A DNA stretch of 64,000 bases from a virus (taxonomy: Duplodnaviria; Heunggongvirae; Uroviricota; Caudoviricetes), in the IMG/VR virus record IMGVR_UViG_2740892229_000011; one strand, written 5' to 3'. The notes beneath the pieces were generated by a model. That model saw nothing but the letters and a program-made list of their open reading frames with translations. It searched no databases and was not told the DNA's origin. This document shows, piece after piece, positions 5,798-64,000 of this stretch. The translations under genes and the position numbers were made by a program. Every line of letters starts with the position of its first letter. Position 1 is the first letter of the stretch.

Positions 5798-8211
<2,414 letters not shown>

Positions 8212-13043: not shown

Positions 13044-13118
13044 GATGGTGTAGCTCAGCGGTAGAGCAGTTGGCTGTTAACCAACTGGTCGGTGGTTCGA
13101 ATCCACCCACCATCGCCA
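13044..13118 (+). tRNA. tRNA-Asn (anticodon GTT)
   Basis: Cloverleaf read by hand: acceptor gatggtg/caccatc, anticodon loop ctGTTaa, T-loop GGTTCGAATCC, 3' CCA encoded; differs from the recalled E. coli tRNA-Asn. Confidence 0.85.
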
Positions 13119-13123
13119 ATTTA

Positions 13124-13210
13124 GGGGAGTTAGTCCGTAGGGGCAGCGGGGTAGACTGTAAATCTACTGTCATTGCGACTCGGGTGGTTCGACTCCATCA
13201 CTCCCCACCA
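13124..13210 (+). tRNA. tRNA-Tyr (anticodon GTA), type II with long variable arm
   Basis: Acceptor ggggagt/actcccc, anticodon stem gtaga/tctac with loop ctGTAaa, long variable arm, T-loop ttcgact, CCA encoded. Confidence 0.7.
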
Positions 13211-13214
13211 AATT

Positions 13215-13290
13215 GCCGGTTTAGCTCAGTTGGTAGAGCGCCTGCCTTGTAAGCAGGATGTCAGCGGTTCGATCCCGTTAACCGGCACCA
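13215..13290 (+). tRNA. tRNA-Thr (anticodon TGT)
   Basis: Acceptor gccggtt/aaccggc, D-arm tagctcagttggtagagc, anticodon loop ctTGTaa, T-loop ttcgatc, CCA encoded; 4-nt spacer from tRNA-Tyr. Confidence 0.8.
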
Positions 13291-13291
13291 A

Positions 13292-13380
13292 CACAACAGG
13301 TAAGAGCATTGGGCGAATCGGCGATACTGACCCACAAGCCCGTAAATCGATAGAGTCAGACCAGTGCTCTTACCGTTGTG
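13292..13380 (+). repeat. Long inverted-repeat hairpin element E2
   Basis: Arms cacaacaggtaagagca / tgctcttaccgttgtg enclosing about 56 nt, directly after tRNA-Thr. Confidence 0.5.
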
Positions 13381-13426
13381 AGGAAGTGCAGCTCTTTGAA
13401 GCAACCAGAAGATAAGCATCTGGCTT

Positions 13427-13510
13427 CACAACACAACGATAAGATCATTACGGTTAATCGTCGTTCATGTGCACAATGACTGGTCGAAAGGTAGTGATCT
13501 TACCGTTGTG
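13427..13510 (+). repeat. Long inverted-repeat hairpin element E3
   Basis: Arms cacaacgataagatca / tgatcttaccgttgtg; the 3' arm is near-identical to that of E2. Confidence 0.5.
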
Positions 13511-13610
13511 ATGAATGCACAGGCTGATGTGCCGCAACTACAGTAGTGCGCGCTTTGCGGGGCTTGCTACAACCCTGTGTCGGAGTTCAGCACCGACCAT
13601 CACAATAGCT

Positions 13611-13697
13611 GGAGAGTAGGGAGCATGGTGCTCAAGCGGTCTTGAAATCCGTCCCATTGTGCAAACGATGATGGTTCGATTCCATTACTCTCCGCCA
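13611..13697 (+). tRNA. tRNA-like element, type II (possible tRNA-Ser, anticodon TGA) with weak anticodon stem
   Basis: Acceptor ggagagt/actctcc, T-arm gatggTTCGATTccatt, CCA encoded, loop cTTGAaa; the anticodon stem is only 4 bp plus a U-U, so function is uncertain. Confidence 0.4.
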
Positions 13698-26883: not shown

Positions 26884-29223
26884 ATGGCAAAAGGAAAATC
26901 CGCACTGGCACTTGCTCTGAAAAAGAAAATCGGTAGCAACGACGAAATTCAGAAAGTAACTCATTGGATTGATACAGGCTTTCCACCGTTAAACAAAGCT
27001 ATTTCTGGTCGTTACGATGGCGGCTTCCCATGTGGTCGTATCGTCGAAGTATTCGGTCCTCCAAGTGCAGGGAAATGTGTTACCGCAGACACCATGCTGC
27101 TGACGGAGCGTGGAATGGTAACAGTGAAAGAGTTGTTTGAGATTGAAGGGTACAAAGCGACATGCACTACTCGCGATGTAGAGCATAACGTTGGACTCAT
27201 CAATGAAAATGGCGTGATAGAGAAGACCTCACACCTGACATGGAACAACCGTCGCAAATTCAAGCGTATTAAGCTGGCATCAGGCGGTTATATCGAGGCT
27301 ACGTTCCGTCACCCAATCCGTGTGGTTGACGACTTAGGTAATGTCGTCTGGCGACATGCTGAAAAAATCAGTGTAGGCGACACGATTCCTTCAATGGTTG
27401 GCACACATCAATTCGGCGATCAGCACCTGGATGCCAATATCGCAAAACTGATGGGCTATTTAATTGCTGACGGATACGTGGCCTCTGAAAATTCAGTGAA
27501 TTTTTCTAACACAGATCCTTTCATCAAGGATGAGTACTACCGCCTCATTTCGCTGGTATCAGACAAGATGCCAGTTACGAGAAAACATAACGGCTCGGAA
27601 GACCATGTGCTGTTTAGCAAAGAGGTGCGTTCGCTGCTTTTTAAAGAATATGGTCTGGAGTATGAGAAAGCTGCTGGCAAGCAGGTTCCGTTGAGTGTGC
27701 GTCGCGCCAATAGCGAGGCTCAAATTGCATTCCTTCGCGGCTACTTTGAGCTGGAATGCCACGTCAATGATGGTCGCTGCATTGAGGTTGTGAGCGCGAG
27801 TGGGCTGCTGCTACAGCAAATTCGCCTCATGCTCCTGAATCTGGGGATTACGTCAACTATCTCTGAAAAACACGTCGCGGGTTATGAAAATACATATTAC
27901 CGGCTGTCATTCAGTGGCTCTAATTACGACCTTTTTCTGTCAACGATTGGTTTCGAATCTCCGGCACGTTTATCAGTGGCAACCAAACGGGACATTGGTT
28001 TTGACCGCACTTACTCAGGCTATGTTCCGCACATCAGCGGCTTAGTGAAATCACTCTACGAGTCGCTCACCAAGACCACCCGTGAAGACTACGCTCTGGT
28101 AGACCACGTTATTGGCCGCGGCGATCGTGTCGGAATAGACAAACTGCGAGAAATCTATGTCTCCTTCATTGGCAGAAAGAATCGTTTTAACGAGCATCTG
28201 TTTGCACAACTGGCAGCGGTAATTGGCTCTAACTTGTTCTACGACGAAGTCGTGGCTATTGAGGAAGGTGAAGCACCAACGTTCGACGTAGCGATGCCGG
28301 AAACACACTCTTTCTGGTCTAACGGGATTATCAGCCACAACACATTCCTTGCAACAGCAGCGATGATCTCCGCTCAAAAACAAGATGGTCTGGCGGTATT
28401 CCTCGATCATGAAAACAGTTTTGACGTTGGCCTGGCTGTAGCCAATGGCCTGAACGCAGATGAGGATGACGGTCAGTGGGTATACAAGCAGCCAGATACC
28501 TTCGAAGACTCTGTAGAGTTGATCGGCACAATACTTAAATTGGTTCGTGATGAAGAGCTTATCCCCGAATCAGCACCTATCTGTATCGTGGCTGACTCAC
28601 TTGCGTCTATGGTTCCGAACTCCAAAGCCGAGAAGTTCGAAAAGATGGCTGAAGGCACTGCCAAAGACAAAGATCAGCTAAACATGAACGACAATACGGC
28701 ACTGGCTCGTGCGACAAGTGCGAACTTCCCTACTCTGGCTTTGTGGGCACGCAAATACAACGCCTGCATCATCTTCTTGAATCAGGTTCGCACAAAAATC
28801 GGTGTAATGTTTGGCGACCCTACTACGTCGCCAGGTGGAGATTCACCGAAGTTCTACGCTTCTGTACGTATCCGTCTTGGTGCATCGGTGATGAAGGATG
28901 GTAAAGAGAAGATCGGCCAGGACGTAGGCGCAGAATGCATCAAAAACAAAGTTGCACCACCGTATGGCAAATGCACCTGGAAATTCTACTTCGATCCTAC
29001 TCGTGGCCTCGACGTTATCGAATCGCTCGTCGAGTACATGCTGGAAGAAGGATACCTGCCAAAGAACGCCAGCGGGCGAGTTGAAATTGGTGACAAGAAA
29101 TACACCAAATCGCAGATCGTCGAGATGTATCGGGAGAAGCCACTGGCTGAAATCATTGCGGCTTTGCAGGCAATCGACGACCGAAGAGCAAAAGACAACC
29201 CCACCGAGTCAGTAGAAGAGTAA
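26884..29223 (+). CDS. RecA-like recombinase interrupted by an intein in the P-loop
   Basis: Extein joins to GPPSAGK|TFLATAAM ... FLNQVRTKIGVMFGDPTTSPGGDSPKFYASVRIRLG, closely matching RecA core motifs; extein about 357 aa. Confidence 0.85.
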   Translation: MAKGKSALALALKKKIGSNDEIQKVTHWIDTGFPPLNKAISGRYDGGFPCGRIVEVFGPPSAGKCVTADTMLLTERGMVTVKELFEIEGYKATCTTRDVEHNVGLINENGVIEKTSHLTWNNRRKFKRIKLASGGYIEATFRHPIRVVDDLGNVVWRHAEKISVGDTIPSMVGTHQFGDQHLDANIAKLMGYLIADGYVASENSVNFSNTDPFIKDEYYRLISLVSDKMPVTRKHNGSEDHVLFSKEVRSLLFKEYGLEYEKAAGKQVPLSVRRANSEAQIAFLRGYFELECHVNDGRCIEVVSASGLLLQQIRLMLLNLGITSTISEKHVAGYENTYYRLSFSGSNYDLFLSTIGFESPARLSVATKRDIGFDRTYSGYVPHISGLVKSLYESLTKTTREDYALVDHVIGRGDRVGIDKLREIYVSFIGRKNRFNEHLFAQLAAVIGSNLFYDEVVAIEEGEAPTFDVAMPETHSFWSNGIISHNTFLATAAMISAQKQDGLAVFLDHENSFDVGLAVANGLNADEDDGQWVYKQPDTFEDSVELIGTILKLVRDEELIPESAPICIVADSLASMVPNSKAEKFEKMAEGTAKDKDQLNMNDNTALARATSANFPTLALWARKYNACIIFLNQVRTKIGVMFGDPTTSPGGDSPKFYASVRIRLGASVMKDGKEKIGQDVGAECIKNKVAPPYGKCTWKFYFDPTRGLDVIESLVEYMLEEGYLPKNASGRVEIGDKKYTKSQIVEMYREKPLAEIIAALQAIDDRRAKDNPTESVEE
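27076..28341 (+). other. Intein (422 aa) with LAGLIDADG homing-endonuclease domain inside the RecA Walker A motif
   Basis: Starts with Cys (CVTADTML), block B TxxH (ATFRHPIRV), LAGLIDADG motifs (LMGYLIADGYV, FLRGYFELECHV), ends SHN followed by Thr +1. Confidence 0.8.
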
Positions 29224-31413: not shown

Positions 31414-31749
31414 ATGAAGGCCATCCCATTCGCGCTGTTGTTCCTTTCTTCGATCGTTGTGGCCGACACCACTGTTTATCAGTGTGAAATGTCTGTAGCC
31501 GACGTTAAGAATGGCGCTCTTACCGACGTCATAAAAGCACCATATGGAGCGATGGTCGTAGACAGCGGCGACCAGTTCTATGTTGTGCGTGACGATCGAG
31601 TGTTGTCATCCCCATATCTCACAAATCGTAATGGCAAATTAACCGGCGTCGGAGAAGACCACTTCGTATACAACAAATACAAGGGCTTCTATGGTGTTCA
31701 CGCTTCTCAGCAAAGCTACCTTTTCGATGACTGCAAGGAGGTTGGATAA
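31414..31749 (+). CDS. small secreted protein
   Basis: N-terminal signal peptide MKAIPFALLFLSSIVVA; SD AGAGG. Confidence 0.45.
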   Translation: MKAIPFALLFLSSIVVADTTVYQCEMSVADVKNGALTDVIKAPYGAMVVDSGDQFYVVRDDRVLSSPYLTNRNGKLTGVGEDHFVYNKYKGFYGVHASQQSYLFDDCKEVG

Positions 31750-31961
31750 TGGCATTAACACTGGCAGGTCTGGAAATCGAGAAAACAAGCGGCTACTGGC
31801 GTGCTAAGGGTTTCAAGCAGCCTGGCATTCTTGAGCGTCTGGAACGTGAAGATGGGTATATCGTCCACCAGCGGCGTGAATGGCGTATGTACGATCCAGA
31901 AACAGGAAAACTGACTACAAAAGCCGGAACACTTTGGGGTCTGTTAAAGAAAATACACTAA
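31749..31961 (+). CDS. hypothetical small protein
   Basis: ATAATGG overlap with the upstream gene; SD AGGAGG. Confidence 0.35.
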   Translation: MALTLAGLEIEKTSGYWRAKGFKQPGILERLEREDGYIVHQRREWRMYDPETGKLTTKAGTLWGLLKKIH

Positions 31962-32004
31962 ATGCAAACTGACTGCGGTACGTTCCGCAGTCATATTTCA
32001 TAGT

Positions 32005-32541
32005 CGTCACCGCTGACAGCATACACAATCAACTACCGCTGATAGCATATCGAGAGTCTATCTCACCGCTCACAGCATACTTTACTCGATTTTTTACCGC
32101 TGACAGCATACTTAAGACATTGCATGAATAATGTGTACCGGTATGGGTATAACCAGAACAAAATTACCGCTGGCAGCATACGAAGGTCTGACATATACCA
32201 TTAATTACCGCTGATAGCATATCCAAACAAAAATTCCTCAATAAAACACCGCTGACAGCATACGTTCTATCAGGGAGCAGCAGGCAATAAATGCCTTTCA
32301 CTACAAGCAATCAGCGCAATAGCAATAGAATGTTAGTGAGCGCAAACCTATATGGAATGCACTCTTCGAGGTTAGTAACCACTGGGGAGGTATGACAGAG
32401 CATTGAGTGGTGATAGATGATTTACCGCCCACAGCATACGTTCATCTCACTATACCGCTGGTAGCATATATTTAACCGTTTACAGCATACTTTTCAGAAA
32501 AATAGCCGCTGATAGCATACATTTCACCGCTGACAGCATAT
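32005..32541. repeat. Iteron array (about 12 copies of 17-bp ACCGCTGACAGCATA[CT]), incA-like copy-control locus downstream of rep
   Basis: Direct and inverted copies at irregular 10-40 bp spacing, with a 150-bp repeat-free gap at 32270-32420. Confidence 0.8.
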
Positions 32542-33635
32542 CAAAGCAGTTTGAGACTATTGGAAAGGATCTCAATCATCTTGATATTTTCAGGCGTCAA
32601 ATTCTGCGAAAGTTCGGTTATCTTGTTGATAATGTTCTGTTTGGCATCAATTTCCCCAGCTTTCTCATCTAGTTTTTTGGGTTCGATGTCTTCAGGTTTT
32701 GGCGGTGCGACTTTGAGTTTTGGATTGCGGCTGTGAATCTGGATATAGATCGACCGCCCTCGCTTAATCTCGCTGTATTCGAGATAACCCAAATCTTGGA
32801 GAGCTTTTAAGCCGTTGCGTATAGTCTGATTCTGCGAGCTGACATTCCTGCTACTCAAATTGAGTCGCGCACGCAATCGAGCAAGCGATACCGGCGCAGG
32901 CTTGGTTGGAAGACTTTCGATGAAGGTGTACAGAGCCTGTGCTGTTTCTTTGCGTGGTAGCTTATTGATAACCTTTAACTGCAAAAGAACCTTATGGTCA
33001 AAGCGATATAGTTCGGCCAGCTTCGGTTCTGCATAGAACACCACCGTATCTTTCTGCTCGTTGTAGTCCACGCTATTGATGAGGTGCACCATCAGAAGCG
33101 AGATCTTGTTAGAGCCGTCGACGTTCTTTTCTTCATACGTTCTCTGGAAAGACAGAGTTGTACGCATGATCTTCAAAAGACTGTTTGTAAGCCGGTCGCG
33201 GAGTGTTTTGCGGATCTGTGACGATGGATAGCCACAAAACTTCGCAAATTTCGTGATGCTTAACTCGACACGACCGTTAGGTTCGCCGTATTCTGCCAGC
33301 GAACGCACAACGCCCACCCACGTTTTGAAATCATGATCCATGTCGAGACGAGGACCGGTTATCTTGATATCGGAATAGCCTTCAGAACGGGCTACTTCGA
33401 GCTGAACAAGCTCCTTTGAAGCATCGATCTCATTTGGCTTGTTACGCTTGCTGTATTTTGTCCCCTTGAGCGTGGGCACGAACAATCCCAGCCGCATCAA
33501 CGCAATTGGTTGGACTGTATTGTTGCTATTAGGGACAAGTTCCCCTGTGTACAATTCAAGGGAACCTTCTTCAAAGTTGTCGAGATTATCTTCTACTTCT
33601 TTGTTATTTTTACCTTTTTTATTTTTTGTGGACAT
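32541..33635 (-). CDS. Iteron-binding replication initiator (RepA/Rep_3-like)
   Basis: Gene flanked on both sides by iterons; start set at internal ATG with SD AAAGG (MSTKNKKGKNNK...); motif IALMRLGLFVPT resembles Rep_3-family initiators. Confidence 0.65.
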   Translation of the reverse strand: MSTKNKKGKNNKEVEDNLDNFEEGSLELYTGELVPNSNNTVQPIALMRLGLFVPTLKGTKYSKRNKPNEIDASKELVQLEVARSEGYSDIKITGPRLDMDHDFKTWVGVVRSLAEYGEPNGRVELSITKFAKFCGYPSSQIRKTLRDRLTNSLLKIMRTTLSFQRTYEEKNVDGSNKISLLMVHLINSVDYNEQKDTVVFYAEPKLAELYRFDHKVLLQLKVINKLPRKETAQALYTFIESLPTKPAPVSLARLRARLNLSSRNVSSQNQTIRNGLKALQDLGYLEYSEIKRGRSIYIQIHSRNPKLKVAPPKPEDIEPKKLDEKAGEIDAKQNIINKITELSQNLTPENIKMIEILSNSLKLL

Positions 33636-33654
33636 GTGGACACCTTTGTCATTC

Positions 33655-33757
33655 AACCGCTGACAGCATACTTGATTTGCCGCTGACAGAATACCAAAAA
33701 CAGTTGGCAGCATACGGTGAACCGCTGACAGACTATCAATTACCGCTGACAGCATAC
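33655..33757. repeat. Upstream iteron set (about 4 copies) overlapping the rep promoter region (incC-like)
   Basis: aaccgctgacagcatac, tgccgctgacagaatac, gaaccgctgacagactatc, taccgctgacagcatac. Confidence 0.75.
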
Positions 33758-33794
33758 ATGAACATGGCTTCAGACCAGTCGTGGCGCGGCTTAC

Positions 33795-33870
33795 AGCGAT
33801 CGGGGATCTTATTTGATCTATACAAGGATCTATCTATGGATCTCTTTATTAGGATCTATCCTGTGGATAT
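33795..33870. promoter_or_regulatory. Origin core: cluster of six GATC (Dam) sites plus DnaA-box-like ATATCCACA
   Basis: Six GATC within about 60 bp, followed by tcctgtggatat (reverse complement ATATCCACAGGA, 8/9 match to TTATCCACA); adjacent to the upstream iterons, as in the P1 oriR layout. Confidence 0.6.
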
Positions 33871-33956
33871 GTGAATAATTAAAACAGGCATTTACTACCT
33901 TCGGCGCACCTGGTGGGTTATCGTTGCCTCGGCTAACAATCACAGAAAAATGACAT

Positions 33957-34601
33957 ATGGATCTAAAACGCACGCGCTGGGTTCGTCGTCTTGAAGACGG
34001 CTCCTACACTATCGAATCAAATTCCAACCTGAATAAGCAGAAGTTGCTTTGTGACATCTGCGGTATAGCGGCGAAGTGCCCGATCTACGAAACCAGAATT
34101 AAACTTGATAAGGCTGGTGTGAATTTTCATTTAAACAGTTGCATCAGGTACGTTCCATTACTCGCATTTCGTAAACCGATCATCGGATTGGATGCTCCCT
34201 ACTTCAACACACTCCGTTCAGGTGTGACGTGGCGAGATCGTTTATCACCAGACAAGCTGATTTGCCTCGTATCCGCAGACACAGGGAAAATCATCCGTTT
34301 TGGGAAAGTAGACAAGGTTTACTCAGGCCCAGTAGACGAAATGTTGCGGAAGCACAGCCGGTTTAATCATCTCTGTATGGGTGGTGAGAAAATCGAGAAA
34401 GTAGAAGAAGTGATCCGCAAATCCTACGGACACTTTCTGACCAAAGATAGCCTGCTCACCGCAATCTACATCAGACATGTAAAACGTGAGTTCGACCTCG
34501 AATACCACAGCGAAGAAGAGCTTAACCTTGTTGACCCACGTCCAAAAGCTGGCGTCATAAGCATAAACGCAGCGCGTAAAAAGCCCACTGACGCGCTGTA
34601 A
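33957..34601 (+). CDS. hypothetical protein adjacent to the origin
   Basis: 214-aa ORF; no recognisable motif. Confidence 0.4.
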   Translation: MDLKRTRWVRRLEDGSYTIESNSNLNKQKLLCDICGIAAKCPIYETRIKLDKAGVNFHLNSCIRYVPLLAFRKPIIGLDAPYFNTLRSGVTWRDRLSPDKLICLVSADTGKIIRFGKVDKVYSGPVDEMLRKHSRFNHLCMGGEKIEKVEEVIRKSYGHFLTKDSLLTAIYIRHVKREFDLEYHSEEELNLVDPRPKAGVISINAARKKPTDAL

Positions 34602-34855
34602 CCCTCCAGATCGTATATTGGCGTAGATAGAATCTACGCCCCCTCAAAATAGCTCTCATAGCGTTCTACAGTGATCCTGTCTTATTTTTAGTCATACAGA
34701 CAAGCAAAGTTGCGCCACGATAAATAGGTATATACTTACTTATAAATTTTGTATATTAAGGCGCTCGTTTCATTCCTAACATACCGTTATGCATAGTTGT
34801 TTACCTCCTCATTGCTCTTAGAATTTGTATCAAAATAACCACAAAGGAAAAATAC

Positions 34856-48985: not shown

Positions 48986-49579
48986 ATGATTGCAGCCGAA
49001 AAAATCAAACAGCGAAAGCGCGACAACTCTCTTCGTGACCTCTGGAGAACACCTGATTGGCTGTTTTCTGCCATTCAACGTTATCTTGGAGTGACATTTG
49101 ATGTTGACGTTGCCTGCAACAAGGACAATGCAAAGCTGCCTATTTTCATAGGCGTTGAGCGCGATGCTTTGAAATCTGAATGGGGGCAGCCAGGTACAAT
49201 TGCCTTCCTCAATCCACCCTACTCCAAAATCTCCCCCTGGATTGATGCGGCTATACGTGAGCAGGCTCGCGGAGTTACAACAGTGATGCTAATTCCTCAA
49301 TCCCTCGATACAAAGTGGTATGAGCGTGCAACAGAGTGTGCGAATGAGACGATTATTCTGTCTGGTGGCCGCGTAGCGTTTGTCGAGCCTGACGTCAATT
49401 TGGGTCAGGTAGAAGTAAACATCAACCCCGGTGGCAGTATGCTCGTTGTTTTTCGAGGATTCTGTCAGGACGCTGGGCACTCTATAAGCAAGATCCCTTT
49501 GGACGTCATGAAAAGTCTGGGAGGGTATGATCCTGCGAATGTGATCAGGAAAAAAAGACCATCAAAGAAGGCTGCTTAG
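48986..49579 (+). CDS. Phage-type DNA N6-adenine methyltransferase (Dam-like)
   Basis: FLNPPYSKI (NPPY catalytic motif), about 197 aa, phage Dam-like architecture. Confidence 0.75.
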   Translation: MIAAEKIKQRKRDNSLRDLWRTPDWLFSAIQRYLGVTFDVDVACNKDNAKLPIFIGVERDALKSEWGQPGTIAFLNPPYSKISPWIDAAIREQARGVTTVMLIPQSLDTKWYERATECANETIILSGGRVAFVEPDVNLGQVEVNINPGGSMLVVFRGFCQDAGHSISKIPLDVMKSLGGYDPANVIRKKRPSKKAA

Positions 49580-60913: not shown

Positions 60914-61673
60914 TCAATACAATAAAATGGCCCCATTTGGATGGGGCCGGTAACAACTAGCATTATGGGCGCTGGTTGACGTACTCAATGATCGCTTCGA
61001 TGATTGCGAACATAGGCGGCACGATTTTGAAAAGTAAGTTAAGCACTATAGGCCTCACTTAGTTTTATCGCACCTAGCTGCAAATACCTTTGAGCTTGCC
61101 TTTGCAGTTGCAATATCTGTAGTCGCCAGATACTTACGGCACGATTTCGAGTTAAGGTAAGGTTTTAGAGTCACCAAAAACCTGGACTTAAATCTTCTTT
61201 GAGAACAACGATGTTTGGTAAATGGTCATTATTACCTAGCATGACGGCTCAACGTTTCTTGATGAATCCAGTACATTCGGTTAATCTTAGCTCAGTCGCC
61301 AGATACTTATGGCTCAGGAACAGAGGCGCAAACTCTGTTTCCTTTTAAAAAGCCCAGCCTAGTCAACTGGGCTTTTTTAATGTCCGTTTTTAACCAAATG
61401 TACCCACAATACCGCAACATCAGTGTCTTGCGAATTAAGATAGGATTTATAGAGACTATGTGCAAGTGCATAACTTTGTGGATAACTCGTAAAGGAAAAA
61501 GTGGTTTCCGCGGACATTAGTTCAGACAAGGAGTCTGGGAAAGTCAATGGGAAGTAAAAATTTGTTAAAAATAACGTTTGTTGGAATTGTATATATTTAT
61601 GCCTTTCAATAGTTAGCATCTTATTAACATCTTTTTTAAGAGATAGAGTTCAAAAATATATAGCTTCAACATA

Positions 61674-61693
61674 TACTGTATGCATATACAGTA
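61674..61693. promoter_or_regulatory. LexA (SOS) box
   Basis: TACTGTATGCATATACAGTA, a near-perfect match to the consensus TACTGT-N8-ACAGTA; 16 bp upstream of the UmuD'-like ATG. Confidence 0.7.
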
Positions 61694-61709
61694 TTAAGAG
61701 GCGAGTATT

Positions 61710-62099
61710 ATGGGCTTCCCTTCTCCTGCGGCGGATTATGCTGAGAGCCGTATTTCTCTTGATCAGCAGATAATTAGACATCCTTCAGCGACCTACTTCA
61801 TGAGGGCGGCTGATAGTCATCATCGTGAGGGAATATTGCAGGGTGCATTGCTGGTGGTCGATTCCTCACTGACTCCTGTTGATGGATCTCTTCTTGTATG
61901 TGCTCTGGATGGGGAATATCGCGTAAAAAGATACCGGAAGTATCCACGTCAACATCTGGAGGATTTAAGAACTGGTAAGAAGGAAGCATTGCCAAAGGAT
62001 GATGATGGATGCACGGGCAGCAATGCCGTGTTTGGTGTGATCACTCACATTATCAACGACGCAAGAAGTGGCGAGTTTGATGATTGTCCTGTGATGTAG
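61710..62099 (+). CDS. UmuD'-like (HumD-like) S24-family protein encoded directly in the processed form
   Basis: Begins M-GFPSPAADYAE, i.e. at the position equivalent to the UmuD Cys24/Gly25 cleavage site; in-frame stop 15 nt upstream prevents any N-terminal extension; Ser and Lys catalytic positions present; no umuC-like gene follows. Confidence 0.75.
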   Translation: MGFPSPAADYAESRISLDQQIIRHPSATYFMRAADSHHREGILQGALLVVDSSLTPVDGSLLVCALDGEYRVKRYRKYPRQHLEDLRTGKKEALPKDDDGCTGSNAVFGVITHIINDARSGEFDDCPVM

Positions 62100-62136
62100 G
62101 AGAACTGTTTAGGTGGTGCATTGCACCACCTTTTTA

Positions 62137-63237
62137 TCACACTGCGCGGAATGCGATTTCGCCAGGTATTACTTCACCTTGCCAATACATTTGGGCAGCA
62201 ACGCGATCTGCGAGGTCACGATAAATAGCCGTAAATTCGCTATCTGGACGACTAATAACGGTTGGTGTTCCGTTATCCAGATCTTCACGAAGAGAGATAT
62301 GAAGTGGCATTTGGCCTAACAACTGCGTGTTGTATTTCTCGGCCAGTTTCTGTGCGCCACCGGTGCCAAAAATTGGCTCGTGATGACCGCAGTTACTGCA
62401 AATATGCACACTCATGTTTTCGACGATACCTAGTACCGGCACTTCGACTTTTTCGAACATCACAATGCCTTTCTTCGCATCGATCAGCGCGATGTCTTGC
62501 GGCGTAGTTACCACAACCGCACCAGTTACAGGAATGTTCTGCGCCAGCGTCAACTGAATATCACCAGTGCCCGGCGGCATATCGAGAACGAGATAGTCCA
62601 GATCAGGCCATAGAGTTTCCTGCAACATCTGCATCAGCGCCTTGCTGGCCATCGGTCCACGCCACACCATTGCATTGTCGTCGGTGACCAGATAACCAAT
62701 AGAGTTGGTTGCCAGGCCATGAGACATGATAGGTGCCATGTGAGTACCGTCAGGTGAGGTTGGACGTTGGTTTTCCGCGCCCAGCATGGTTGGAATTGAT
62801 GGACCATAGATATCGGCATCCAAAATACCAACTTTCGCACCTTCAGCAGCCAAAGCCAGTGCCAAGTTTACTGCTGTGGACGATTTGCCTACACCGCCCT
62901 TGCCTGAGCTTACGGCGATAATATTCTTAACACCATTAATGCCTGGTTGGTTTTTGACGCGCTTAAGCGTGGCAATGTTGTACGACAGCTTCCAGTCAAT
63001 AGCCTTTGCGCCAGTGATACGGAGCAGATCACCACTACATTGCTCTTTCAGGTCTTCAAAAGGCTTATTCCACACGAAAGGCATGATTAGTTCGACATGC
63101 AGTGTGTCATCCATCAACGCAACATGGTGTAACGCTTTAAGCGTAGTCAGGTTGTGTTTCAGGGTTGGGTGCTGAAAATTAGCCAGCGTACCGGCTACCA
63201 TTGCTCTCAGGGCATCCGGCGATTTGGACTCGCTCAT
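62137..63237 (-). CDS. mrp: Fe-S cluster carrier ATPase Mrp/ApbC
   Basis: Full-length near-identity to recalled E. coli Mrp (P-loop GKGGVGKSST, CSNCGH motif). Confidence 0.95.
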   Translation of the reverse strand: MSESKSPDALRAMVAGTLANFQHPTLKHNLTTLKALHHVALMDDTLHVELIMPFVWNKPFEDLKEQCSGDLLRITGAKAIDWKLSYNIATLKRVKNQPGINGVKNIIAVSSGKGGVGKSSTAVNLALALAAEGAKVGILDADIYGPSIPTMLGAENQRPTSPDGTHMAPIMSHGLATNSIGYLVTDDNAMVWRGPMASKALMQMLQETLWPDLDYLVLDMPPGTGDIQLTLAQNIPVTGAVVVTTPQDIALIDAKKGIVMFEKVEVPVLGIVENMSVHICSNCGHHEPIFGTGGAQKLAEKYNTQLLGQMPLHISLREDLDNGTPTVISRPDSEFTAIYRDLADRVAAQMYWQGEVIPGEIAFRAV

Positions 63238-63394
63238 CCCGTCTCCTTTATTTTAATTTGCGCAATTGTCGCCTTGTAGTGTACTCCAGCTGCGACATTT
63301 AATCATTTATGAGAAATGCTGTTATCACATGGCAGACATAAGGCCATTTTGTTACTATCAAGCCCCTTTTCACTACAAAGAAGTAATGCCTACT

Positions 63395-64000
63395 ATGACC
63401 CAAGTCGCGAAGAAAATTCTGGTGACGTGCGCGCTGCCGTACGCTAACGGCTCAATCCACCTCGGCCATATGCTGGAGCACATCCAGGCTGATGTCTGGG
63501 TTCGTTACCAGCGAATGCGCGGCCACGAGGTTAATTTCATCTGTGCCGACGATGCCCACGGTACGCCGATCATGCTGAAAGCACAGCAACTTGGTATCAC
63601 ACCGGAGCAGATGATTGGCGAAATGAGTCAGGAACACCAGACTGATTTCGCAGGCTTTAACATCAGCTATGACAACTATCACTCGACGCACAGCGAAGAG
63701 AACCGTCAGTTGTCTGAGCTTATCTATACTCGCCTGAAAGAGAACGGTTTTATTAAAAATCGCACTATCTCTCAGTTGTACGACCCGGAAAAAGGCATGT
63801 TCCTGCCGGATCGTTTTGTGAAAGGCACCTGCCCGAAATGTAAAGCGCCAGATCAATACGGCGATAACTGTGAAGTTTGCGGCGCGACCTACAGCCCGAC
63901 TGAACTGATCGAGCCGAAATCGGTGGTTTCTGGTGCTACCCCGGTAATGCGTGATTCTGAACACTTCTTCTTTGATCTGCCCTCTTTCAGCGAAATGTTG
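63395..64000 (+). CDS. metG: Methionyl-tRNA synthetase, 5' portion (continues beyond window)
   Basis: [35 protein letters not shown]..., HIGH-type motif and zinc knuckle CPKC...CEVC; no stop before the window end. Confidence 0.95.

Follow-up and report, generated by a model that had tools for sequence, protein, structure and literature searches.

Iteron replication of the P1 type, a RepFIB-like class that also includes P7, is a textbook system. In P1, repA is followed by a second iteron array, incA, which controls copy number and is dispensable for initiation. For iteron plasmids in general, chaperone-driven monomerization of the initiator, titration and handcuffing have been described (PMC6090056). 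In the SSU5 supergroup of phage-plasmids, the RepA proteins of pECOH89 and p09EL50 are identical to each other and 48% identical to RepA of pLF82 (PMC3999498), and the RepA gene family of these plasmids is used in replicon typing, under the labels IncFIB or rep_cluster_488 (PMC7969092). The Klebsiella IncpKPHS1 replicon has been reported to be iteron-regulated and SSU5-like, with four iterons downstream of repA (PMC6735626), and induction and packaging have been reported for related SSU5-like phage-plasmids (PMC9600943). A 2026 preprint on phage-plasmid-mediated heteroresistance (bioRxiv 10.64898/2026.08.19.745698) mentions repA, copy number, pSLy3, SSU5, pHCM2 and pMT1, and may include experiments on a related replicon. 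The papers that we consulted on the pECOH89/p09EL50 group do not describe the fine anatomy of the origin.

Here, we analyzed a stretch of 64,000 nucleotides (the window) from the IMG/VR virus record IMGVR_UViG_2740892229_000011, which had been predicted to contain an iteron replicon in the style of P1 oriR, carried by a phage-plasmid. Our results support this reading through homology of RepA, an order and spacing of elements that match P1, occurrence on plasmids only, and the presence of capsid, terminase and tail genes. By sequence comparison, the segment at 31962-33956 follows the layout of the P1 plasmid origin almost base for base; it is real but ordinary.

Results

The element and its relatives

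Barring a single 1,954-bp insertion, the window is 99.98-100% identical to the E. coli plasmid NZ_CP027358.1, a circle of 110,001 bp; the insertion is an IS21-family element that is extra in the window. The plasmid carries capsid, terminase, tape-measure/tail, DnaE, NrdAB, ThyA and gp32 genes, and the element also encodes a primase and a DnaB-like helicase. Its replication genes had been called T4-like, a description that fits gp32 (Pfam gp32, E = 1.7e-66) but not the polymerase, which is of the bacterial DnaE type. Members of the SSU5 supergroup are circular plasmids of ~100-115 kb that combine siphovirus structural genes, a block of DNA-metabolism genes and a RepA replicon. From these sequence matches and gene content, the element belongs to this supergroup and is of the pECOH89/p09EL50 type: p09EL50 (NC_018651.1) is 98.8% identical across the replicon, pECOH89 (NC_023916.1) is 99.9% identical over window positions 61000-64000, and there is no difference of kind between that group and the element studied here. 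The host phage is a siphovirus-type relative of SSU5 (PMC7969092) and not a P1-like phage.

Of 5,426 complete E. coli genomes, 119 (~2%) carry the replicon, at 183 places that are always on plasmids and never on a chromosome. An intact repA with 95-100% conservation is present in 117 of the 119. The same replicon is present in three phage records, one of PhiR41_1 and two of CMS-2020a.

The RepA initiator

The minus-strand Rep reading frame of the original prediction is a real gene:

32541-33635, minus strand: repA, predicted iteron-binding initiator of 364 aa, with its ATG at 33635 (Pfam Rep3_N; P1 RepA homology)

The ATG is preceded, 5 nt upstream, by the ribosome-binding site AAGGTG. The phage CMS-2020a records start repA at the same codon, and the N terminus of the 364-aa protein aligns with those of the RepAs of Klebsiella, SSU5 and pMT1. 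RefSeq gives a 404-aa form starting at 33755, which would run through all five origin iterons and is probably an over-extension.

A comparison of the product with the Rep_3 and P1 RepA families had been proposed, and both comparisons were positive. With Rep_3 initiators defined by Pfam PF01051 (WH1) and PF21205 (WH2), Rep3_N (WH1) matches residues 118-239 above its cutoff (E = 3.9e-9; 37.5 bits versus a gathering cutoff of 22.4) and also matches six of six aligned relatives. Rep3_C (WH2) matches weakly at residues 251-296, directly after WH1 (E = 0.13; 13 bits versus a cutoff of 21.1), and is matched in five of six family members (best E = 1.3e-4). In BLASTP, the protein is 46% identical to P1 RepA over 278 aa (E = 4e-86), spanning residues 20-284 of the 286 in the P1 protein, and tblastn against P1 and P7 gave E = 2e-64 to 2e-68. 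The 46% identity settles membership in the P1 RepA family, and by homology the repA product is a Rep_3-family initiator. Relative to P1 RepA, it has ~12 extra N-terminal and ~55 extra C-terminal residues. Searches of PDB sequences with RepA alone (E up to 1) and with a six-sequence profile (E up to 10) returned no match, so that Pfam is the source of the predicted WH1-WH2 fold. No NCBIfam model matches RepA, the 214-aa neighbor or the 70-aa Cra-like protein.

Iterons on both sides of repA

32005-32541, plus strand: incA-like control array, 12 direct iterons in three clusters (iteron scan)
32009-32111, plus strand: control-array cluster 1, 4 iterons
32166-32263, plus strand: control-array cluster 2, 3 iterons
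32424-32541, plus strand: control-array cluster 3, 5 iterons
33652-33757, plus strand: incC-like set of five direct, helically phased origin iterons, core spacing 23, 21, 21 and 21 bp (iteron scan; P1 comparison)

The iteron core, ACCGCTGACAGCATAC, is present in 17 copies, all on the plus strand. Twelve lie downstream of repA, as had been estimated, and five lie upstream, where about four had been counted. Downstream cores start at 32009, 32035, 32065, 32096, 32166, 32207, 32248, 32424, 32454, 32475, 32505 and 32526, and upstream cores at 33656, 33679, 33700, 33721 and 33742. When up to 3 mismatches were allowed, the iteron 14-mer matched 26 times in the window, compared to 5.06 ± 2.33 times in shuffled sequence (0 of 100 shuffles reached 26); the 17 matches with 0-2 mismatches and one 3-mismatch copy all fall in 32010-33756. 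An iteron-like match inside repA (33288, minus strand, 4 mismatches) was taken as chance because Klebsiella has no equivalent.

Start-to-start spacings in the downstream array are 26, 30, 31, 70, 41, 41, 176, 30, 21, 30 and 21, and the final iteron shares 1 nt with the repA stop codon. Two stretches without iterons, at 32112-32161 (50 bp) and 32264-32419 (about 155 bp), divide the clusters; we counted these gaps against a P1-like explanation. An Rfam search of 31700-34100 at a permissive E-value gave zero matches, leaving the longer gap without a known RNA.

A CRISPR array combines regular repeats of ~23-50 bp with unique spacers that are uniform, and has cas genes close by. The numerous short direct repeats seen here, with variable DNA between them, could in principle form a CRISPR-like or other non-replicative array, and an array with cas genes had been named as grounds for abandoning the replicon reading. 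We rejected this explanation, to which we assign a negligible probability: the core measures just 16 bp, the distance from one start to the next varies irregularly from 21 to 176 bp with gaps between cores down to 5 nt, the record annotation contains no cas genes, and the Rfam search was empty. The repeats also lie on both sides of a P1 RepA homolog, and this homology, together with the anatomy of the locus, refutes a CRISPR-like array.

The origin core

33758-33797, no strand: GC-rich spacer (39% A+T) that separates the iterons from the GATC region (composition; P1 alignment)
33798-33856, no strand: A+T-rich origin core with six GATC sites in GGATCT(A/C)T-type heptamers, spacing 7, 10, 12, 12 and 14
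33862-33878, minus strand: predicted tandem DnaA boxes ATATCCACA and TTATTCACA, 9 bp past the last GATC
33628-33644, minus strand: candidate pair of weak tandem DnaA-box-like 9-mers, ATGTCCACA and GTGTCCACA, each 7/9 to TTATCCACA

The GC-rich spacer contains CGTGGCGCGGC, which is common to P1 oriR, and has a 35-nt local match to P1 at 85.7% identity. The anticipated cluster of six GATC sites is present beyond it (33798, 33805, 33815, 33827, 33839 and 33853), with all six within 59 bp, and it is the only cluster in the 64-kb window at a criterion of at least four GATC per 100 bp. The number of clusters of this density expected by chance in the window is ~0.02 (Poisson estimate), and none of 300 mononucleotide shuffles reached six sites. 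The region 33798-33880 is 66% A+T. The DnaA-box-like site that had been pointed out, ATATCCACA (33862-33870), was also recovered, and it overlaps by 1 nt a better box, TTATTCACA (33870-33878), on the same minus strand. The weak pair at 33628-33644 sits at the end of the origin nearest to repA, and the equivalent place is occupied by GTATCCACA in Klebsiella and by CTATCCACA in P1. Identity of ~83% to P1-type plasmids is restricted to 33769-33878.

The GATC core is a putative Dam/SeqA target and unwinding region, and the conserved GATC sites, taken with the P1 precedent, suggest that Dam methylation may control the origin. A Dam-like methylase had been placed next to the origin in support of such control:

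48986-49579, plus strand: predicted phage-type N6-adenine methyltransferase of the Dam family, 197 aa (Pfam PF05869; TIGR01712)

The element does encode this enzyme (Pfam PF05869 Dam, E = 1.7e-37; NCBIfam TIGR01712, E = 1.4e-32, above cutoff), but the gene is ~15 kb from the origin, and a functional tie between the two would be speculative.

The upstream iterons had also been said to overlap the repA promoter. A strict scan for sigma-70 promoters (at least 9/12) on the minus strand, that of repA, gave no candidate within the iterons. The best match was weaker:

33668-33697, minus strand: weak candidate repA promoter, TTGGTA-18 nt-AAGTAT, 7/12 (consensus score; position as in P1)

Its hexamers straddle iteron junctions, as do those of P1 PrepA, and the curated P1 promoter (TTGCTA, 18 nt, TAGGAT) itself scores 8/12. 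Thus, the candidate is at the P1-equivalent position, but because there is no match of at least 9/12, its overlap with the iterons stands as an analogy to P1, and it is from position that autoregulation of repA is suggested.

Comparison with the P1 replicon

Using the curated P1 annotation, we found the same order in both replicons: DnaA boxes, GATC heptamers, GC spacer, five iterons, repA and control array. Distances agree closely. Origin iterons are spaced 23/21/21/21 here versus 22/21/21/21 in P1 incC, the iterons are 41 bp from the GATC sites versus 40 bp, and 9 bp separate the last GATC from the DnaA box in both (the annotated DnaA site in P1). The GATC heptamer cluster can be aligned with P1 oriR at the nucleotide level, with six intact GATC sites here and five annotated at the same place in P1, and the tandem DnaA box pair is common to both. 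The iteron itself is different (ACCGCTGACAGCATAC here, CCCTCCAGCACACATC in P1).

The downstream array abuts the repA stop codon in both replicons, and its spacings of ~21, 31 and 41 bp compare with 30-31 and 41-43 bp in P1 incA. However, P1 has nine downstream iterons, the six distal ones inverted, whereas the 12 here are all direct and fall in three clusters; because of this difference in orientation, the geometry of array pairing may differ from that of P1. The parAB operon adjoins the array in P1, but no par operon is next to the array here, which we counted against the P1-like explanation; a ParA-like ATPase is encoded ~33 kb from the array, just beyond the window.

These differences bear on what the array does. 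A copy-number role is predicted from its likeness to incA, since it overlaps the repA stop as in P1, although its all-direct orientation departs from the P1 pattern. It might instead serve mainly another RepA-dependent role, such as silencing of convergent transcription, plasmid clustering or a second initiation site. The uniform orientation, unlike that of P1 incA, would suit such a role, as would the 50-bp and 155-bp inserts between the three clusters, the variable size and layout among relatives (12 copies here, 9 in Klebsiella) and the remote partition genes. We nonetheless consider this improbable, since the array has the same sequence as the origin iterons, begins at the repA stop and resembles P1 incA in its spacings, and neither a GATC cluster nor a DnaA box lies beside it. 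If the array does act on copy number, the all-direct, three-cluster arrangement of 12 iterons may set it differently from P1 incA.

Conservation among relatives

RepA of the Klebsiella IncpKPHS1/pKpn group is 85-87% identical to RepA here. The IncpKPHS1 replicon shares an identical iteron core, five origin iterons, six GATC sites and a downstream array in which every iteron is direct, but that array has 9 iterons in two clusters, compared to 12 in three here, and is rearranged in its distal part. Between the two homologs, origin iteron cores are 91% identical and inter-iteron spacers 50%, and all six GATC sites are kept.

One could suppose that RepA and its iterons are no more than an inactive relic and that the element is maintained from another origin by its own replisome (DnaE, primase and DnaB-like helicase); it does encode a near-complete replication apparatus, and the scan for a strong repA promoter consensus was negative. 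This seems quite unlikely given the intact, highly conserved repA in nearly all matching E. coli genomes (117/119) and the retention of iteron cores and GATC sites while the spacers drift. In addition, the annotation of the 110-kb record contains no other plasmid initiator, and it is this repA family that typing schemes use.

Exchange of the replicon in a fixed slot

31970-31993, no strand: hairpin of 9 pairs (6 G-C) at the distal cassette edge, resembling a terminator in either direction

In SSU5, pHCM2, pMT1 and pLF82 (Cyrano), the replicon occupies the same genomic slot with the same flanking genes, and synteny around repA is shared with SSU5, pMT1 and Cyrano. Proteins encoded by the flanking genes of Cyrano are 99-100% identical to those here, whereas the RepAs of this group, although homologous and sharing the C-terminal extension, are only 47-48% identical. 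Their iteron is CTCTCTACAGTGGATA rather than ACCGCTGACAGCATAC, with an unrelated core sequence in Cyrano/pLF82, the origin core is duplicated upstream of repA, and the downstream array is of mixed orientation. The DnaA boxes are the same as here, and GATC spacing in SSU5, pMT1 and Cyrano is 7, 10, 12, 12 and 13; GATC spacing is thus conserved among replicons with three different iteron specificities.

Alignment with Cyrano/pLF82 at high identity (98%) stops at 31979, within the hairpin, which comes just past the stop of the 70-aa Cra-like gene. One boundary of the exchange falls at the stop codon of the gene upstream, the other at the start codon of the gene downstream. The RepA/iteron unit has been swapped as a sharply bounded cassette between this element and Cyrano/pLF82. 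The RepA difference had already been noted in the pECOH89 paper (PMC3999498); the sharp bounding of the swap is the one mildly new point.

Discussion

Our results support a model in which 31962-33956 is, with high probability, the plasmid-prophage maintenance replicon of a pECOH89/p09EL50-type phage-plasmid of the SSU5 supergroup and works like P1 oriR. By analogy with P1 and other iteron plasmids, DnaK/DnaJ would convert RepA dimers to monomers, which would bind the five origin iterons and, together with host DnaA, melt the A+T-rich GATC region, which would allow the host replisome to load. Firing would require full Dam methylation of the GATC sites, and SeqA would sequester the hemimethylated core once initiation was done. 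RepA bound to the origin iterons would repress its own promoter, and the downstream array would reduce copy number by titrating RepA and pairing with the origin (handcuffing). Lytic replication would use the DnaE, primase and helicase genes of the element and start from a separate origin.

Both the element and this replicon type are already known. The finding carries little weight as a discovery because the P1-type system is textbook, the plasmid group is common and published, and its RepA is already a typing marker. Nonetheless, the origin map, with 5 + 12 iterons, the GATC core, DnaA boxes and the repA start, may be the fullest for this RepA variant. These phage-plasmids carry resistance genes, and changes in copy number affect resistance; the map could thus guide work on copy-number control.

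It is an evenly balanced question whether 31962-33956 is, more generally, a discrete and exchangeable 2-kb specificity cassette, in which RepA and iterons vary and the GATC/DnaA core that engages host factors is kept. If so, phage-plasmids of the SSU5 type would vary their incompatibility through swaps of the whole replicon, which would let relatives co-reside, a selective meaning that we infer. The bounded replicon swap between near-identical phage-plasmids would in that case provide a testable model of incompatibility escape.

Organization of the replicon

The replicon of this SSU5-supergroup phage-plasmid is a member of a textbook class, carried by a published and common group of phage-plasmids. 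Seventeen copies of a 16-bp core, ACCGCTGACAGCATAC, surround the minus-strand Rep ORF, all 17 of them on the plus strand. Twelve lie downstream of repA (core starts 32009 to 32526), as originally predicted, and five rather than the expected four or so lie upstream (core starts 33656, 33679, 33700, 33721 and 33742). Allowing up to three mismatches, the iteron 14-mer matched the window 26 times, compared with 5.06 +/- 2.33 times in 100 dinucleotide-preserving shuffles of the window, none of which reached 26. All 17 matches with 0-2 mismatches, and one further copy with three, fall inside 32010-33756. The iteron finder recovered 14 of 14 annotated iterons in P1, which validates the method. Beyond the upstream iterons, the following features were found.

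33758-33797, GC-rich stretch, 39% A+T
33798-33856, six GATC sites (A+T is 66% over 33798-33880)
33862-33870, minus strand, DnaA box ATATCCACA
33870-33878, minus strand, DnaA box TTATTCACA, overlapping the ATATCCACA box and the better of the two

The predicted run of six GATC sites in 60 bp is thus present; it was equalled in 0 of 300 shuffles and is the sole cluster in the 64-kb window with at least four GATC per 100 bp. The DnaA-box-like site of the original prediction is the first of the two boxes, and the better second box is an addition to it.

The curated P1 record (AF234172) runs from a DnaA site through five Dam sites and a set of five incC iterons carrying PrepA to repA and nine incA iterons; the repA-proximal incA iteron overlaps the stop codon of repA. 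Order and spacings match those of the window, supporting the core interpretation of a P1-style replicon.

Spacing of origin elements in the window and in P1
Origin iterons (bp): window 23, 21, 21, 21; P1 22, 21, 21, 21
Last iteron to first GATC (bp): window 41; P1 40
Last GATC to DnaA site (bp): window 9; P1 9

The GC spacer, GATC heptamers and DnaA boxes can even be aligned to P1 at the nucleotide level, and hundreds of P1-type plasmids show about 83% identity to the window, confined to 33769-33878. The iteron sequence, however, is unlike that of P1. The 12 downstream iterons are all direct and form three clusters, with stretches of 50 and 155 bp between them that lack iterons, whereas the six distal iterons of the nine in P1 are inverted; six GATC sites are intact, against five in P1; and the array is not adjoined by a par operon. 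A small ParA-type ATPase and a 117-aa partner are encoded about 33 kb from the array, just beyond the window edge. The 155-bp insert within the array (32264-32419) gave no match in Rfam and contains a near-palindrome, GGTTAGTAACC (inside GGTTAGTAACCACTGGGGAGG); a similar segment in Klebsiella, GGTTAGTGACCACTGGGGAAG, lies outside the array there.

RepA and its start codon

The RepA protein aligns with P1 RepA at 46% identity over 278 aa (BLASTP, E = 4e-86), an alignment that takes in residues 20-284 of the 286 in the P1 protein, and its assignment to the Rep_3 family is borne out by a Pfam match to Rep3_N (WH1) above the cutoff (E = 3.9e-9; 37.5 bits vs 22.4 bits). The Rep3_C (WH2) match directly after WH1 is sub-threshold (E = 0.13), and Rep3_C was matched in 5 of 6 relatives (best E = 1.3e-4). 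About 55 C-terminal residues are additional to P1 RepA and common to the four other SSU5-supergroup RepAs compared. PDB sequence searches with RepA returned no matches.

The minus-strand ORF spans 32541-33755, and RefSeq calls a 404-aa repA that starts inside the fifth origin iteron and reads through all five origin iterons. This call is probably over-extended. The likely start is ATG 33635 (364 aa), which is favoured because AAGGTG lies 5 bases upstream as a ribosome-binding site, because the resulting N-terminus (MSTK...) is conserved and aligns with the RepAs of Klebsiella, SSU5, pMT1 and Cyrano, and because two phage CMS-2020a records start repA exactly at the equivalent position.

The element and its relatives

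Positions 31900-33950 are 100% identical to the circular E. coli plasmid NZ_CP027358.1 (110,001 bp), and elsewhere the window is collinear with this plasmid at 99.98-100%, except for one 1,954-bp insertion. The plasmid encodes the major capsid protein, the large terminase, and tape-measure and tail proteins. It also has genes for DnaE, primase, a DnaB-like helicase, ligase, a gp32-like SSB and a RecA that contains an intein, together with SbcCD-like proteins, NrdAB, thymidylate synthase, DHFR and RNase H. A tyrosine recombinase and a Dam-family methylase complete the list. The replication genes had been described as T4-like, which holds for the gp32 homologue and not for the polymerase, which is DnaE-type. 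Nor does the methylase adjoin the origin as proposed: the Dam-family gene (PF05869, E = 1.7e-37; TIGR01712 above cutoff) is at 48986-49579, about 15 kb away. In E. coli, host Dam would be enough.

The replicon region matched 203 plasmid records and 4 phage records, and three of the latter (PhiR41_1 and, twice, CMS-2020a) contain the whole replicon. It occurs in 119 of 5,426 complete E. coli genomes, at 183 places, all plasmid; no chromosomal copy was found among the 5,426. Identity to p09EL50 (PMC3486847) is 98.8% over the replicon, and pECOH89 agrees at 99.9% with a different part of the window; according to the pECOH89 paper, this plasmid and p09EL50 have the same RepA, and the pECOH89 protein shares 48% identity with the pLF82 one (PMC3999498). 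Such plasmids are assigned to the SSU5 phage-plasmid supergroup and type mostly as IncFIB (PMC7969092; 10.1101/2025.09.12.675607), and induction and packaging of SSU5-like phage-plasmids have been demonstrated (PMC9600943). A Klebsiella RepA homologue (85-87% identity) belongs to the published IncpKPHS1 replicon, which was described as regulated by iterons and as having "four" of them downstream (PMC6735626).

Between the window and the Klebsiella replicon, identity is 91% in the iteron cores and 50% in the inter-iteron spacers, and all six GATC sites are kept, which at the level of sequence comparison is evidence of selection. A GATC spacing of 7, 10, 12, 12, 13-14 is kept in the element, Klebsiella, SSU5, pMT1 and Cyrano, across three distinct iteron specificities, and that of P1 is close. 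The downstream iterons vary: there are 12 in the window and 9 in Klebsiella, and their orientation is mixed in SSU5 and pMT1. In SSU5 (positions 780-823 and 1155-1198 of locus L003) the origin core is duplicated in tandem upstream of repA, each unit comprising a DnaA box and a partly degenerate GATC region with a separate iteron group; pMT1 and Cyrano share this duplication, which is absent from the window's replicon.

Other features of the window

The insertion (5798-7751) lies between the two copies of a 5-bp direct duplication (CAAGA). Its terminal inverted repeats are imperfect and begin with TGTCA, and its two ORFs, of 340 and 260 aa, are on the minus strand. The insertion looks like an IS21-family element of the IS100 type and, by coordinate mapping, disrupts a tetratricopeptide-repeat protein gene of NZ_CP027358.1. 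A 779-aa RecA-family recombinase (26884-29223, plus strand) carries an interrupting intein that bears a LAGLIDADG homing-endonuclease domain (Pfam RecA, 3.3e-36; LAGLIDADG_3, 2.4e-17; Intein_splicing, 2.1e-11); the recombinase appears in RefSeq solely as "LAGLIDADG family homing endonuclease". Four tRNA genes (Asn-GTT, Tyr-GTA, Thr-TGT, Ser-TGA) cluster at 13044-13697 on the plus strand; for pECOH89, only two (Thr, Asn) were reported (PMC3999498). From 62137 to 64000 and past the window end run apbC/mrp and metG (methionyl-tRNA synthetase), housekeeping genes of chromosomal type. An assembly artefact was considered and rejected, since this region is present at 97-100% identity in all 15 group members listed, including pECOH89; metG is a second MetRS kept by the phage-plasmid.

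Proposed mechanism

The proposed mechanism starts from the parts list and homology of the replicon, and its remaining steps are extrapolated from knowledge of P1 and iteron plasmids. Part of that knowledge is the classic P1 work of Abeles, Austin, Chattoraj, Wickner and Brendler. DnaK/DnaJ would release RepA monomers from dimers, the monomers would occupy the five origin iterons, and RepA together with DnaA would open the A+T-rich GATC region. Firing would need full Dam methylation, and after initiation the hemimethylated core would be sequestered by SeqA. RepA would repress its own promoter within the iterons, and the downstream array would hold copy number down via titration and origin pairing. 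Besides this classic work, the mechanism draws on the P1 record annotation (AF234172) and a review (PMC6090056).

The promoter step is its weakest part. A strict promoter scan of the repA strand yielded no candidate. The best repA promoter candidate, TTGGTA-18-AAGTAT, scores 7/12 and lies at the iteron junctions that the promoter occupies in P1; the P1 promoter itself reaches 8/12.

Replicon replacement in a fixed slot

In all five cases examined (SSU5, pMT1, Cyrano, Klebsiella and the element), the replicon sits between two small conserved genes.

31749-31961, plus strand, 70-aa gene annotated as "P1 Cra" (Cre-associated) protein
33957-34601, plus strand, 214-aa gene adjoining the origin, an ASCH-domain protein by the phage Cyrano annotation

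Pfam and NCBIfam searches gave no matches for the 214-aa protein. Compared with Cyrano/pLF82, three flanking proteins are 99-100% identical, whereas RepA is only 47-48% identical, a difference noted already in 2014 (PMC3999498), and the iterons are unrelated. At the nucleotide level, identity stays at 98% as far as 31979, just beyond the stop codon of the gene upstream, and then collapses; it is 89% over 33769-34650 (origin core and downstream gene), lower in the core itself, and near-identity resumes at ATG 33957 of the downstream gene. The boundaries of the swap (31962-33956) are the stop and start codons of the neighbouring genes. Near-identical flanks, a divergent RepA and sharp identity boundaries thus document whole-replicon replacement in a fixed slot. 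What is mildly new is that the replicon forms a cassette with sharp boundaries, and escape from incompatibility is a plausible reason for its replacement.
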